Assembly: GCA_043822065.1 (NCBI GenBank)
Contig: JBDRCC010000005.1
Coordinates: 1 to 10,197, forward strand
From: an archaeon
GTDB taxonomy: Archaea; Undinarchaeota; CAZHTU01; JBDRCC01
Direction of reading: 5' to 3'
Length of the DNA stretch: 10,197 bases
Positions 3,140 to 10,135 of the stretch are shown piece by piece. Position 1 is the first letter of the stretch. Each line of letters opens with the position of its first letter. The position numbers and the translations under genes are program-made. The notes under the pieces were generated by a model. That model saw nothing but the letters and a program-made list of their open reading frames with translations, was not told the origin of the DNA and did not search any database.

Positions 3140-3149
3140 CGCACCAAAT

Positions 3150-3180
3150 TGTAAAAGCGCTTACAGTTAATAATGATTTT
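3150..3180 (-). promoter_or_regulatory. Putative promoter of the HAD-sua5-GT4-DUF354 operon with a downstream palindrome
   Basis: Minus-strand TTATTAA (3173-3167) preceded by A-rich GCAAAATC, about 28 nt from the ATG at 3139. TGTAA-N6-TTACA at 3150-3165. Confidence 0.45.
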
Positions 3181-3184
3181 GCGT

Positions 3185-3607
3185 TCAGGACGCCGCCGCT
3201 TTTTTTGGGTTTTTGCCAGTTTCCGCAAATTTGGCTGCCTGTACCATCTTAGTATAGAACCACGGCATAGACGGGTAAACCTGGGAGCAAAGGTTTTTGT
3301 TTAATATGTCTCCAAGCGCGGCGTCTACTGCCTTCACGACTTTGGCGTCTGGCGCTGTAAAGAAGATATACGGGAAAGTATAATGCACTATGCTTTGCCC
3401 CCCTGCCGTGCTTATTATCCTTGAAATCACCTTTGCGCGCATCCTCGCGGCGTTGGCGTCAGCAACCTTCCAGGGCGGGGCGTAGACTAGGCAGCGCCTT
3501 TTGCCTTTTCCAGTTTTGGCGACGGGAACCTCAAACTTGCTGCCGAATACTCCGCCAAACCTCTTTGTTTCCGTTTGCCTGTTCTTGTCGGTATCGCCTT
3601 TTTTCAT
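3185..3607 (-). CDS. Hypothetical basic protein (140 aa), possible ferredoxin-like alpha/beta fold
   Basis: Fills the intergenic space in the same orientation as its neighbours. Purine-rich GAGGGTAGG precedes the ATG. No recognisable family motif. Confidence 0.7.
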   Translation of the reverse strand: MKKGDTDKNRQTETKRFGGVFGSKFEVPVAKTGKGKRRCLVYAPPWKVADANAARMRAKVISRIISTAGGQSIVHYTFPYIFFTAPDAKVVKAVDAALGDILNKNLCSQVYPSMPWFYTKMVQAAKFAETGKNPKKAAAS

Positions 3608-3654
3608 TTTCCTACCCTCTTGTTAAACCGGGTGAACCACTTTCCCTCCTATTT

Positions 3655-3685
3655 AAAAAAATAGGAGGGGGGCTGTGCCCCCCTC
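3655..3685 (-). terminator. Stem-loop plus oligo-U terminator-like element
   Basis: Minus-strand RNA reads GAGGGGGGC-ACA-GCCCCCCUC (perfect 9-bp stem, 3685-3665), then CUA and U7 (3661-3655). Confidence 0.65.
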
Positions 3686-3709
3686 AGAAGAAGTTCTGGT
3701 CCGCGCTTC

Positions 3710-3781
3710 TTAGACGGTCAGAGCTCCTTGGCTTTCGCTTCCGATCTCTTCTTCGTCTCGGTCTGCGTTGTTTCTTTCCAT
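3710..3781 (-). CDS. Putative 23-aa upstream ORF / leader peptide MERNNADRDEEEIGSESQGALTV
   Basis: ATG at 3781 is preceded by a textbook SD, AGGAGG (3792-3787, 5-nt spacer). TAA at 3712-3710, shortly before the terminator-like hairpin. Confidence 0.4.
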   Translation of the reverse strand: MERNNADRDEEEIGSESQGALTV

Positions 3782-3792
3782 GTTTTCCTCCT

Positions 3793-3866
3793 GGGTGACG
3801 CCGCCTGGTCTCCCAAGTGGTTCACCCGATGCTTGTTCGCGTGAACATGACCGGGTGATCCGGTTT
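3793..3866 (-). ncRNA. Structured 5' leader RNA with alternative hairpins (unassigned cis-regulatory element)
   Basis: Hairpin 3858-3822: UCACCCGGU/AUCGGGUGA plus UGUUC/GAACA. It competes with a GAGA-tetraloop hairpin at 3827-3793: GGGUGA/UCACCC plus CCACUUGG-GAGA-CCAGGCGG. Starts about 23 nt after a TATA box. Confidence 0.5.
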
Positions 3867-3888
3867 GGGTATACTTTGTGCTTTAGAC

Positions 3889-3904
3889 TATATAAACTCC
3901 CTTA
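3889..3904 (-). promoter_or_regulatory. Archaeal TATA box (TTTATATA) with purine-rich BRE-like upstream sequence
   Basis: Minus strand AAGGGAG-TTTATATA (TATA at 3896-3889). Predicted transcription start near 3866. Confidence 0.65.
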
Positions 3905-3945
3905 ATGACCCCTGATCTGCATAATCAGCACCGCCTGTTTTTAAT

Positions 3946-4563
3946 CTACCTCACCAAGTAATTTATCCAGTAAACCATGCCCTGCCTGCCCGCAGCATAC
4001 TCCCCATGCCAAACATGAAGCGCCCTTGCGCCATTCCGCGCGGCCGCAAGTTCGAGCCTTTTTTGTTCGCCATCAGTTGCAGTCACCCACAGGCAGATTC
4101 CTTCCGCAGCCAACACCTGTAAAACTTCCGCAAGCAAACCATCCATATTGTGTTGGGCCTTTGGGGTCCTGAAACTTATAACGACATCTGCCGAGCCTTT
4201 CTTGAGCCGCATGCCTTTCTCCGAGTCTGCACGCATGAACCTGCACTGGAGCTCAAGCTTCCTGGCAGCTTTCTTTGAGGGAGCAGCCATTCTCATTATT
4301 TCAGTTGTTCCAACAACCCTTGCGCCGTACTTCCAGGCAATATAGCATACCGTCTCGCCGCTCCCGCAGAACAGCTGGAGCACCCTCTTTTCAGGGGAAA
4401 GAAATGGACACCTACTTGCGAGCTCCGCAGGTAGCTTCTTGCCCCCATAGTTTGCCTTTTCAACCGACTTAAGCGCCTCGGACATCAGCAGGTCATCTGG
4501 CGACTCCTTAGAGCCAAGTATGAGCTTCTTGAATCCCAAAAAGGAAAGCGGCGCGCTCTTCAT
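3946..4563 (-). CDS. Class I SAM-dependent methyltransferase-like protein with degenerate motifs
   Basis: RVLQLFCGSGE (motif I-like), YGARVVG, FMRAD, ADVVIS and VLAAEG follow Rossmann MTase strand order. ATG at 4563 is preferred to 4572 because of TATA spacing. Confidence 0.72.
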   Translation of the reverse strand: MKSAPLSFLGFKKLILGSKESPDDLLMSEALKSVEKANYGGKKLPAELASRCPFLSPEKRVLQLFCGSGETVCYIAWKYGARVVGTTEIMRMAAPSKKAARKLELQCRFMRADSEKGMRLKKGSADVVISFRTPKAQHNMDGLLAEVLQVLAAEGICLWVTATDGEQKRLELAAARNGARALHVWHGEYAAGRQGMVYWINYLVR

Positions 4564-4583
4564 GCTAACCATTTGTAGAATGC

Positions 4584-4599
4584 TTTAATAAATCTATCG
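4584..4599 (-). promoter_or_regulatory. TATA/BRE promoter for the methyltransferase-like gene
   Basis: Minus-strand CGATAGA-TTTATTAAA (TATA at 4592-4584), about 21 nt from ATG 4563, which is leaderless geometry. Confidence 0.55.
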
Positions 4600-4640: not shown

Positions 4641-4781
4641 TTAGTGCCACTCAGTGTCGTCCTTTTTCGGCTTGTGCGAGGAGACGCAGACATACCTCAG
4701 CTTGCTGCCCTCGTAGCAGTTGTCCGCCAGGTCGCATTCGTCCTTAATCCTGACGGGGCACTTCTTTTTCTCGCCCTTCAT
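4641..4781 (-). CDS. 46-aa Cys/His-containing microprotein (possible metal-binding)
   Basis: MKGEKKKCPVRIKDECDLADNCYEGSKLRYVCVSSHKPKKDDTEWH. Below the ORF-track cutoff. GC3-rich codons like its neighbours and a dedicated TATA/BRE about 23 nt upstream. Confidence 0.72.
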   Translation of the reverse strand: MKGEKKKCPVRIKDECDLADNCYEGSKLRYVCVSSHKPKKDDTEWH

Positions 4782-7692: not shown

Positions 7693-8355
7693 CTACTTAA
7701 ACCACGCATCAAGCTTCTTCTGGTCGCCAAAATCCATGCCGTTGTACCCGAACGCCTCAAGAATCCTGAGCACCGGCGGGAGGACCTGGTTCTCAATATA
7801 GTACTGCGGGTCGTACCCGCCCTCATAAAGCTCAACGGGCACTGCCCTGTCGCCGATTTTTCCCTTGCTTGCGCCCTTGACAACGATGTACCCTATGACG
7901 CTTCCCTGCTCCACCTGCCTTCCAGCCGCCTTCGCCTTTCGCGCAGCGGCGACGTGCGGCCCCTCCGCTTTGTAGCTGTCTATCTCCTTTATCAGCTGGG
8001 TGTATATTACAAGGTCTTCAGTCTGGACGTCGCCCTTCTTCAGGCGGAGAATTACTTCCTGGACAATCTTTACGGCCTCGTCCTGCTTGCCTTCAAGCAC
8101 GGTCCGGATAACCCCCTGCTGGGTCTCCTTGGCAATCTTCGACCAGTCGCGCCGCCTGACCTCAAGCCCGCGCGTCTTGATGTTTCCGTCATAATCTATC
8201 AATGCATACCTCTTCTTTGTTATGAACACCCCGCGGCGGTAATAGCCCTCAAGCTCGAGCTCCATCACCCCAGGGAGGTTTTTGTTCACCTCCGCCAAGA
8301 ACTTCCCGACCTTGCCTACGAATTTCTCCGGCGGCTTATCCATTGGCATCACCAA
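7693..8355 (-). CDS. polB: Family B DNA polymerase, C-terminal part (rest of palm, thumb, PIP box)
   Basis: ELELEGYYRRGVFITKKRYA, TRGLEVRRRDWS, GPHVAAA, YYIENQVLP and C-terminal PCNA-interacting motif QKKLDAWF. Continues the upstream ORF in the +1 frame. Confidence 0.93.
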   Translation of the reverse strand: MVMPMDKPPEKFVGKVGKFLAEVNKNLPGVMELELEGYYRRGVFITKKRYALIDYDGNIKTRGLEVRRRDWSKIAKETQQGVIRTVLEGKQDEAVKIVQEVILRLKKGDVQTEDLVIYTQLIKEIDSYKAEGPHVAAARKAKAAGRQVEQGSVIGYIVVKGASKGKIGDRAVPVELYEGGYDPQYYIENQVLPPVLRILEAFGYNGMDFGDQKKLDAWFK

Positions 8356-10135
8356 AGAACAGGGAATCCGTGTCCCCGTATATGACTGTGAATCCCGCCT
8401 TTTCCGCCCTGTCCATTATGTCCTGTATGAAATGCCTTCCAAACGCAGTCACGCTCTCTGCGCATTGGCGCGAATGCCAGCGCGAGCCTGCGTAGCCCAA
8501 GTAGCCGTAGGCAGAATTCAGGAACAGCTTGAGCGCGTACTGCTCGGCGTCAAGGCGCTTGTACTCCTTGCTGCCCTTCTGCGCCTCCTTCATTCTTTTC
8601 TTTATCGCGCCACGGTTATCGAGCAGCTCCTTCAGCGCTGAAGGCAGGAGCCCAGTCCGCTTCTTGCAGAAGTAATGCGGCATCCCCGGTACAGCCATCC
8701 GTTCCTTCGGCGAACAGCAGTCGCAGTTCAGCATATCCGGTCCGATGTTGTGGCTTATTATCACCGAGGGGTACAGGCTCCTGAAGTCGAGGACCGCAAG
8801 GTGCTCGTGCATGCCCTTGATTGGGTCCCTCACGTAAGCCCCTTCGATTGCGCCCTCTGCAATCCTGCTTGACCGCTCGTCATAATGCGGGCGCGACGGA
8901 GCGACTTCCCCCCGCTCATGCGCCTTGTTTAGGAGGAGGCTCTCGACCAGCTGGCCGGAGGTCATCCTGCTGACGTCAAAAATCGGGCCCTTCACGAGCC
9001 TGGAGAACTCAAGCTGGAGGGGAAGGAACTCGAGCGCCAGCTTAGCCGTCGCGTCGGCGTCCTCGCGGGTGTACTGCATTATCCTGTTGAGGTCCTTGCC
9101 CTCGTCCCAGACCTTCCACATGTCGCCGTCGAACGGCTTTTTGTCCGTCCCGAAAATGTGGTTTGCCACGTGCTCAAGCGTGTACCTGGGGAGGCTCAGG
9201 CTGCCCCTCAAAATATTGAACACTACGTGGTAAAGGTCGGCATGAAGCCTTCCAGGAATTTTCGCCGCCTCAAACCGCCCGCGCTTTGAGAAACTGACGC
9301 CCATCTTCTCACGCCCTAAGATAAGCTCGACCTTCAGGGCGTCTGCCCTCTTCTCAATATACGGGAAGTCAAACTGGTCGCCGTTGTAGGTCACGACAAC
9401 GTCCGGGTCTCTCTCCTGGTAGGTGCTGACGATTTCCTCTATCAGCTCACGCTCATCCTTCACAACCGTTATCCACGGCTTTTTCTCCTTCGGCTCTTTT
9501 GAAGTTATGACCCGCTCCCAGCCGGAATTGTCAGCAAAGCTTGCAGCGATTATCGGGTCAATCTCAGGCCGCGGCGCGCCTTCGGGGTTGTAGACCTCAA
9601 GGTCGAAGCTCATTATCCTCAGGGAATCAATGTCTGTCAGCTCGGCGGAGCGCTTTATGTCCTCAACCGCGTATGCGTTCTCAAGCCCCTCTGCATTCTT
9701 TGCCTCCTGCGCCTTGACGTCCAAGAGCACGGACTGCTCGAGCCCGAGGTCAATCATGTACCTCCTGACGAATGGGATGTCGTCCTCCCGCGACTCGTAT
9801 CCGAGGTTGCGCACGAGCTCACGATAGATAGGCACGTCGCCCGGGCGCTTGAAATACACTTTCAGGACTTCCCTGGGCGTCCCGCTAACATTCCTTTGGA
9901 CATGCTCAAATCTTACTGCCTTTACTTCCTGCCCGCTCTCCGTCGCCCCTGACTTGCCCTCCAGCTCCTTTTCGGCGTCCGCTGGCTTTGGCGCGAGCAC
10001 ATAAATATACGGCTGGTGCCTGGAATCAAGGAGGACTGCCGGCTTCCATTTGCCATCAGAAAGCGCCTTTCCGAAAAGCCTGACTGTTGTGAACTCTTCA
10101 GAACGGTAGTCTATGTCCAGCAAAAGAAATTTCAT
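8336..10135 (-). CDS. polB: Family B DNA polymerase (PolB3-like), N-terminal part (uracil-sensing domain, 3'-5' exonuclease, motifs A, B, C)
   Basis: EDDIPFVRRY (uracil pocket), ExoI FDLE, ExoII YNGDQFDFPY, ExoIII YTRED, motif A DFRSLYPS, motif B KLFLNSAYGY and motif C YGDTDS. Stops 6 codons after YGDTDSLF. Confidence 0.95.
   Translation of the reverse strand: MKFLLLDIDYRSEEFTTVRLFGKALSDGKWKPAVLLDSRHQPYIYVLAPKPADAEKELEGKSGATESGQEVKAVRFEHVQRNVSGTPREVLKVYFKRPGDVPIYRELVRNLGYESREDDIPFVRRYMIDLGLEQSVLLDVKAQEAKNAEGLENAYAVEDIKRSAELTDIDSLRIMSFDLEVYNPEGAPRPEIDPIIAASFADNSGWERVITSKEPKEKKPWITVVKDERELIEEIVSTYQERDPDVVVTYNGDQFDFPYIEKRADALKVELILGREKMGVSFSKRGRFEAAKIPGRLHADLYHVVFNILRGSLSLPRYTLEHVANHIFGTDKKPFDGDMWKVWDEGKDLNRIMQYTREDADATAKLALEFLPLQLEFSRLVKGPIFDVSRMTSGQLVESLLLNKAHERGEVAPSRPHYDERSSRIAEGAIEGAYVRDPIKGMHEHLAVLDFRSLYPSVIISHNIGPDMLNCDCCSPKERMAVPGMPHYFCKKRTGLLPSALKELLDNRGAIKKRMKEAQKGSKEYKRLDAEQYALKLFLNSAYGYLGYAGSRWHSRQCAESVTAFGRHFIQDIMDRAEKAGFTVIYGDTDSLFFGDANG

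Follow-up and report, generated by a model that had tools for sequence, protein, structure and literature searches.

What does a consensus archaeal promoter drive when neither a gene nor a tRNA stands at the usual distance behind it? The question is raised by the minus strand at positions 3608 to 3896 of contig JBDRCC010000005.1, from a DPANN archaeon of the phylum Undinarchaeota (assembly GCA_043822065.1). The window is this entire contig of 10,197 bases (C5). The assembly holds 1.03 Mb in 22 contigs and is 82% complete. On the minus strand, the region lies between an upstream gene for a class I methyltransferase (3946-4572) and a downstream gene for a 140-amino-acid (aa) protein. An earlier note on this DNA had read the region as an undescribed archaeal attenuator or riboswitch or as a small RNA (sRNA)-plus-protein module. 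We favor a self-contained small gene, either an mRNA for a short open reading frame (ORF) or an sRNA, whose RNA would refold upon read-through into the next gene. We hold this reading with slightly less than even confidence. The module named in the earlier note comes close to it.

The anatomy of the region is real and nonrandom. The TATA box, leader, Shine-Dalgarno (SD) sequence, 23-codon upstream ORF, hairpin with U7 and complement described in the earlier note were all found where it had placed them, reading the minus strand. The promoter and the class of terminator rest on the sequence, and the helices rest on the sequence and on computed folds, including minimum free energy (MFE) folds. 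The features are as follows.

3889-3896, minus strand: promoter P1, very probably, with the consensus archaeal TATA box TTTATATA (sequence and promoter statistics of the genome)
3819-3861, minus strand: two-tier leader hairpin, UCACCCGGU paired with AUCGGGUGA and enclosing GUUCACGCGAAC; contains partner (i) of the shared strand (MFE fold)
3815-3830, minus strand: X2', the shared strand, with the core CGGGUGA (3828-3822) plus ACCACUU (repeat search and folds)
3790-3817, minus strand: second leader hairpin, including a GAGA-loop hairpin at 3817-3804 (predicted folds)
3787-3792, minus strand: SD sequence AGGAGG, 5 nucleotides (nt) before the ATG at 3781 (sequence)
3710-3781, minus strand: candidate short ORF of 23 codons, acidic and led by the SD sequence (sequence)
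3688-3711, minus strand: small hairpin AAGAAG/CUUCUU over the stop codon of the short ORF (predicted folds)
3655-3685, minus strand: terminator, a 9-bp G+C hairpin (3685-3665), CCUA and T7 (3661-3655) (sequence)
3644-3669, minus strand: second, perfect hairpin of 11 bp, CCCUCCUAUUU/AAAUAGGAGGG, with four bases of T7 as its loop (repeat search)
3650-3657, minus strand: candidate promoter P2, TATA-like TTTAAATA, overlapping T7 (consensus match only)
3627-3644, minus strand: X3, a perfect 14-nt complement of X2' and a direct repeat of X1 (3866-3850) (repeat search)
3185-3607, minus strand: gene of the 140-aa protein, with a weak SD sequence GAGG at 3619-3616 (ORF and one homologue)

Promoter P1 was judged against the rest of the genome. 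Genes were called crudely as the longest nonoverlapping frames of at least 100 aa. This gave 974 genes in 90% of the genome and left 10.5% as gene-free DNA. The genome contains 66 copies of TTTATATA, and 52 of them lie within the gene-free part. The sequence is identical to the consensus of 51 aligned promoters of the genome. The site at 3896-3889 therefore has what marks an archaeal TATA promoter, a match to the genome's own consensus in gene-free DNA, and it is very probably a promoter. In the genome's promoter logo, start codons follow 27 to 33 nt after the start of the TATA box, the arrangement of leaderless mRNAs. Before start codons genome-wide, SD-like motifs peak at 9 to 15 nt and TATA-like motifs peak at 26 to 35 nt, so most promoter-proximal genes are leaderless. 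The earlier note had described the other promoter-proximal genes in this way, and the description holds both in the window and genome-wide. Gene-free DNA contains 96 sites of the form TTTA[AT]ATA. Behind 83 of them, an ORF of at least 50 aa starts 22 to 75 nt downstream (50 at 25 to 39 nt and 33 at 40 to 75 nt). One site stands before a tRNA, and 12 have neither gene nor tRNA. Since the box at 3896 is among these 12, P1 appears to drive something other than a normal gene. The genome's TATA-to-start spacing places its predicted transcript start at about 3866 to 3868.

The other end of the unit resembles ends elsewhere in the genome. Several genes have a G+C hairpin, a few bases and a run of six or seven T's 31 to 43 nt behind their stop codons. 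In this unit, the T-run begins at a distance of 48 nt from the stop codon of the short ORF. The 40 nt upstream of T7 are the most stable among those of 180 gene-free T-runs of at least six. The site has the makings of an archaeal intrinsic-like terminator, which are a T-tract of at least five behind a transcription unit and an optional hairpin. T7 after a G+C hairpin is consistent with a 2026 review (PMC13675443), according to which archaeal RNA polymerase stops at T-rich tracts without a hairpin, and a hairpin can enhance stopping. The locus differs from such terminators in that its T-tract doubles as the loop of the second hairpin and as part of a TATA-like box. A single T/A-rich stretch may thus be terminator, hairpin loop and TATA box at once, a compact design. 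The 11-bp hairpin excludes the terminator hairpin, because CCCUC is common to it and to the 3' arm of the terminator. Other loci at which a TATA-like box joins a terminator were tried as parallels; they were less similar than hoped.

Between these two ends lies a strand that can pair in several ways. The 85-nt leader has an MFE of -34.9 kcal/mol (z, -4.01), and no shuffled sequence folded as well. Within it, X2' has possible partners at 3858-3851, 3798-3793 and 3644-3627. Partner (i) of its core CGGGUGA is UCACCCGG at 3858-3851. Partner (ii) is UCACCC at 3798-3793, which closes the GAGA loop in a third fold of the leader. The 3' arm of the second leader hairpin, CCCAGG, extends into the SD sequence. 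Partner (iii) lies in X3. It pairs over 14 nt (3815-3828 with 3629-3642), or over 16 bp if one G-U and one A-U pair are added. Apart from X3, the genome has no second copy of the 14-mer. X3 is also the only perfect complement of the unit genome-wide, and it stands directly after the unit's own terminator. X3 is a copy of X1, and X2' is matched better by X3 than by X1. There is also a weaker fourth copy of the repeat, whose core is GGnTCACCCG. The earlier note had given CGGGUGA three mutually exclusive partners. All three exist, with (i) and (iii) strong and (ii) marginal.

Predicted folds change along the transcript. To 3644, the MFE structure consists of the two-tier 5' hairpin with helix (i), the second hairpin reaching into the SD sequence and the terminator hairpin. 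Once the transcript extends to 3627, the structure is wholly changed. It then contains the 16-bp helix (iii), the 11-bp hairpin instead of the terminator and the SD sequence paired with UUCUUCU. The pair probabilities of helix (i) are 0.94 to 0.97 in the terminated RNA and at most 0.01 in the read-through RNA. Those of the terminator hairpin fall from 0.93 to 1.0 to at most 0.08. In the read-through RNA, helix (iii) reaches 0.94 to 1.0 for 13 of its 14 pairs, and the 11-bp hairpin reaches 0.89 to 1.0. Helix (ii) has a pair probability of 0.02 in the terminated RNA and 0.0 in the read-through RNA.

The short ORF lies between the leader and the terminator. Its AGGAGG is perfectly complementary to the 3' end of the genome's own 16S rRNA, which ends ...GGAUCACCUCCU (CCUCCU). 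The codon-usage log-odds of the frame is 1.77, the best of the three frames and at the 5th percentile of real coding segments. The 23-residue peptide contains five Glu and no other residue run, and it includes the stretch D-R-D-E-E-E. An alternative 32-codon frame opens with TTG 3816, 5 nt after the SD-like GGGUGA. It encodes a basic peptide and has a codon score of -4.15. Both peptides are charged and hydrophilic. The hairpin at the stop codon contains the pyrimidine run CUUCUUCU, which in a fourth fold pairs alternatively with the SD region. Sequences were compared with 17 genomes of the phylum, including the one studied; the other 16 span 0.6 to 1.1 Mb. The 23-codon peptide had no homologue among the 17 genomes (1/17 matched, which was itself).

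Downstream, the 140-aa frame appears to be a real gene, because it has a homologue with which it shares 53 invariant positions. A HMMER search of 1.84 billion representatives retrieved the protein itself and this one homologue, P0002 (118 aa, 44% identity, E value of 3e-22), whose source label is Candidatus Undinarchaeota. The earlier note had called the gene an orphan. That stands insofar as the protein matched no known family; it does not stand insofar as one homologue exists. A word-based search of 5.8 billion proteins matched the protein only to itself, and no homologue was found in the other 16 phylum genomes. Alignment of the family against genome, metagenome and viral contigs gave no confirmed locus. 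The protein matched no Pfam, PHROG, NCBIfam or PDB profile. In the ESM Atlas it had no feature hits, and the Atlas model was of low confidence. The AlphaFold model had a predicted local distance difference test score of 49.1 and was unusable.

The 140-aa gene may have its own promoter, since the TATA-like TTTAAATA lies 50 nt before its ATG at 3607. The box begins with the last three T's of T7 and fits the strict TATA pattern. Its spacing is that of the leadered class of promoters, into which 33 of the 83 TATA-gene pairs fall (40 to 75 nt); the genome has 12 cases of TTTAAATA at 41 to 70 nt. The predicted start is at about 3628, which would give a 20-nt leader with the weak SD sequence. X3 lies between this box and the predicted start, just outside the P2 transcript. 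The stop codon of the gene is followed after 46 nt by the start of a HAD hydrolase gene, with no T-run in between (3140-3184, minus strand). The hydrolase is followed by genes for Sua5/YrdC, a family 4 glycosyltransferase and DUF354, and the last three overlap. The 140-aa gene may be cotranscribed with this row of genes, because no T-run separates them.

Our inferences on the ends of the transcript, on translation of the short frame and on the switch between RNA forms are as follows. The TATA box at 3896-3889 would start a transcript at about 3866. The hairpin plus T7, the standard type in this genome, would end it at about 3655. The product would be about 212 nt long. It would have a stably folded 5' part of 85 nt, followed by a middle rich in purines that carries the 23-codon acidic frame and a strong ribosome-binding site (RBS). 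It would be a short-ORF mRNA, an sRNA or both. This small unit would stand head to tail with the 140-aa gene, which would most likely be driven mainly by its own TTTAAATA (3657-3650) inside the terminator T-tract. Upon read-through past the T-tract, 30 extra nt would bring in the perfect complement of the leader strand. The 5' hairpin would open, and the 16-bp long-range helix would close a domain of 200 nt. The 11-bp hairpin would replace the terminator hairpin, and the RBS of the short frame would pair with CUUCUUCU. The short and long RNAs would therefore expose different start sites.

Dual-function sRNAs and small-protein mRNAs are the nearest known likeness to such a small gene. These include SgrS/SgrT, RNAIII and the sRNAs with short frames of Haloferax and Methanosarcina. 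Like them, the locus would make a partly structured RNA of about 200 nt that carries a short frame, from its own promoter to its own terminator, beside an unrelated gene. It differs in that nothing in the genome is perfectly complementary to it except the stretch that directly follows its own terminator. The fold-back mRNAs of the hok/sok type are also similar, in that a long-range helix between leader and 3' part closes the RNA and hides the RBS of the short frame. In contrast to these, the locus has its 3' strand past the terminator, shows no evident antisense RNA gene and has possible peptides (23 and 32 residues) that are not membrane peptides. A type I toxin mRNA was rejected, since it requires a small hydrophobic peptide and both possible peptides are charged and hydrophilic.

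Several observations weigh against the small-gene reading. The two transcript starts and the 3' end are predicted. P1 lacks the AA at -4/-3 of the genome logo and has G and G there; TTTAAATA lacks the AA as well, and it may be an accidental by-product of a T-tract followed by A's. The genome has 136 cases of AGGAGG with a start codon, and 48 of the 136 open frames of fewer than 30 codons. The motif is therefore not decisive for translation, as an SD sequence with a start codon frequently arises by chance. The codon statistic of the short frame is ambiguous, because 29% of antisense segments also reach a log-odds of 1.77. The plus strand folds about as well as the minus strand (z of -5.58 and -6.46), so an RNA-level role is not favored over a DNA-level one. 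With an own promoter at about 3628, the complement would be transcribed by read-through only, and its perfection would be explained only loosely.

Nucleotide, covariance-model, pattern and protein searches found no relatives of the leader. In blastn against the 17 phylum genomes, the leader region (338 nt) gave only matches at chance level (E value of at least 0.11). The single-sequence covariance model R1 found itself in the phylum genomes at 116.7 bits and one match at an E value of 0.3; no relative was found. A scan of metagenomes with the leader pattern gave 13 matches. All had a G+C content of 62 to 75% and at most 13.1 bits, as expected by chance. A cmscan search of the whole window against Rfam 15, at E values up to 1, gave nothing in the region. 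The sole match in the window was sR32 at 4238-4303 (E value of 0.33; 17.9 bits versus a gathering threshold of 40), which lies inside a coding frame and outside the region. The locus is single-copy in the genome, and its hairpin has no second copy. The upstream methyltransferase had no homologue in the phylum at an E value of 1e-10 or better (1/17, itself). No Rfam family or mobile element explains the locus, in agreement with the earlier note, which had considered it a candidate novel RNA switch.

Other identities were considered and rejected. A miniature inverted-repeat transposable element or other mobile element does not fit the single genome copy; AACAAG flanks lie 1 and 2 nt from the arms and are not adjacent to them. 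A C/D-box or H/ACA RNA was rejected on the lack of an Rfam match and of box motifs seen by eye. The 16-bp helix is without bulges and is not a bulge-helix-bulge processing stem. A genome-wide regulon of TCACCCGG was also rejected. By our reading, the other copies flagged as gene-free lie in a short coding frame and at a contig end.

The arrangement of the region suggests a different explanation, a cis-acting RNA switch. In such an attenuator or riboswitch, the 140-aa gene would be expressed from P1 only, and the hairpin with T7 would be a conditional terminator that responds to a ligand or to ribosome loading on the short frame. The order of promoter, folded 85-nt leader, SD-led short frame, terminator and gene speaks for it, as does the rarity of long leaders in this genome. 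X1, X2' and X3 form a strand set of the 1:2 / 2:3 type. In a concrete version, the nascent 5' arm of the terminator and CUUCUUCU would pair with the SD sequence, and a ribosome on the SD sequence would free both and let the terminator form. The predicted fold of the nascent RNA to 3675, before the 3' arm is made, does pair the 5' arm of the terminator with the SD region. The locus also resembles the bacterial attenuators trpL, leuL and hisL, which likewise have a promoter, an SD-led short frame in the leader, strand-sharing helices and a G+C hairpin with a U-tract before the gene. It departs from them in its archaeal host, whose polymerase terminates at T-tracts without hairpins (PMC13675443), and in a short frame without a regulatory codon run or any codon run tied to a known function. 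Further, once the 3' arm of the terminator is present, the terminator fold (-78.0 kcal/mol) is 13.5 kcal/mol better than the best alternative (-64.5 kcal/mol; equilibrium folds, no kinetics). Because the alternative is weaker by this much, the folds point to no antiterminator of comparable strength. The third strand, X3, cannot decide termination at T7, since it lies downstream of the T-tract, and the consensus TATA-like box 50 nt before the 140-aa gene is a candidate promoter for that gene. These points weaken the attenuator or riboswitch reading of the earlier note. It also lacks support from conservation or covariation, because Rfam, blastn, the covariance model and the metagenome pattern scan gave no relatives of the leader. 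We regard such a switch as unlikely, while giving it as much weight as any rival of the small gene. A more specific form of it is a translation-coupled attenuator. Here the RBS of the short frame may pair with the 5' arm of the terminator and hold this arm open. Ribosome loading, or stalling on D-R-D-E-E-E, may free the arm for the terminator, and the 16-bp helix may lock the read-through RNA so that only the 140-aa protein is translated. That all these steps hold jointly is less probable than a switch of some kind.

The repeats may instead act in the DNA. X1, X2, X3 and the weaker fourth copy would then be operators located on or shortly behind both TATA boxes, the usual place for archaeal repressors to bind. 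The transcription factor that binds them may be the 140-aa protein. The three repeat copies of about 17 nt occur in two orientations, with X1 at +28 to +46 from the first TATA box and X3 at +13 to +30 from the second. The octamer TCACCCGG is rare (19 genome copies on both strands), and by our reading no copies but the two at this locus lie in truly noncoding DNA. The equal folding of both strands would fit this explanation too. However, the two sites stand at unequal distances from their TATA boxes (30 versus 14 nt), the core is not palindromic and the genome has no further sites. G-U pairs, which lengthen the helices, are of consequence in RNA alone, and the 140-aa protein has neither a recognizable DNA-binding domain nor a usable model. 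We consider operators improbable, the least favored of the readings weighed here. The remaining explanation keeps the promoter and terminator as real and takes the long-range complement and alternative helices as functionless, perhaps left over from a local duplication or from gene acquisition. The genome contains 4 perfect inverted repeats of at least 14 nt with arms within 400 nt, against about 1.5 expected by our own rough estimate, so a 14-nt repeat by itself is no surprise in a large scan, and the locus was picked from a very large one. A 6-mer was present four times in 120 of 3,000 shuffles, and purine-rich and pyrimidine-rich runs pair readily in predicted folds of any kind. The locus occurs once in its genome, and the 140-aa family has two known members. 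Against this, none of 3,000 dinucleotide shuffles of 3608-3945 (338 nt) gave a 14-nt inverted repeat; the maximum was 13, reached once. The minus-strand fold has z scores of -6.13 (271 nt) and -6.46 (240 nt). Four independent strong helices (17, 16, 11 and 9 bp) lie within 240 nt, and X3 copies X1 yet fits X2' better than X1 does. We judge chance or a relic to be unlikely, to about the same degree as the RNA switch.

The significance of the locus depends on which reading is true. If it is only a small gene, it would be a modest addition, a candidate sRNA or small protein in a phylum from which we know of no cultured member and no described noncoding RNAs of this kind. If the read-through refolding or attenuation is true, it would be a rare case of control by RNA structure in Archaea. 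Archaea have few known riboswitch classes, and to our knowledge, classical attenuation has not been established in them. Our literature search found no paper on archaeal attenuators. A translation-coupled attenuator, if true, would mean that a lineage whose mRNAs are mostly leaderless has a switch that depends on a hairpin and senses ribosomes.

Other gene-free regions of the genome were ranked by fold alongside the locus. Regions of 240 to 520 nt numbered 105, of which 78 were scored, and the locus ranked 5th. Among the other eight of the nine best-ranked regions, four contain rRNA or tRNA. Four gene-free regions fold as well as the studied locus or better (C7:91489-91904, C1:21497-21804, C18:5356-5646 and C7:89076-89376). 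Their z scores are -3.6 to -4.4 (15 shuffles), and they had no Rfam match at E values up to 0.01. They are candidate structured RNAs of unknown kind. The genome's longest perfect inverted repeats are two A+T-rich sequences in gene-free DNA, one at C11:4123-4199 (16 nt with a 45-nt spacer) and one at C3:17255-17284 (a perfect palindrome of 30 nt).

Three further observations were made upstream of the locus, all on the minus strand. About 30 nt 5' of the second ATG of the methyltransferase gene, at 4563, stands a TATA-like TTTATTAAA (4563-4594). Because of this box, the true start may be three codons later than that of the longest frame. A 46-aa frame, rich in Cys and Lys, was found at 4641-4781 between a Na+/H+ exchanger gene and the methyltransferase gene. 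TATA-like TTTTATAAA stands about 31 nt 5' of its ATG, and the frame is likely a leaderless small-protein gene given this distance. The family B DNA polymerase is split into two overlapping frames, 8336-10135 (599 aa) and 7693-8355 (220 aa). The break falls directly after the YGDTDSLF motif, at a TTCTTTGG stretch. In phylum relatives, 12 of 14 matches are one open frame of about 800 to 850 aa. Since these relatives keep a single frame, the split appears to be a frameshift specific to this genome, due to assembly error, decay or recoding.

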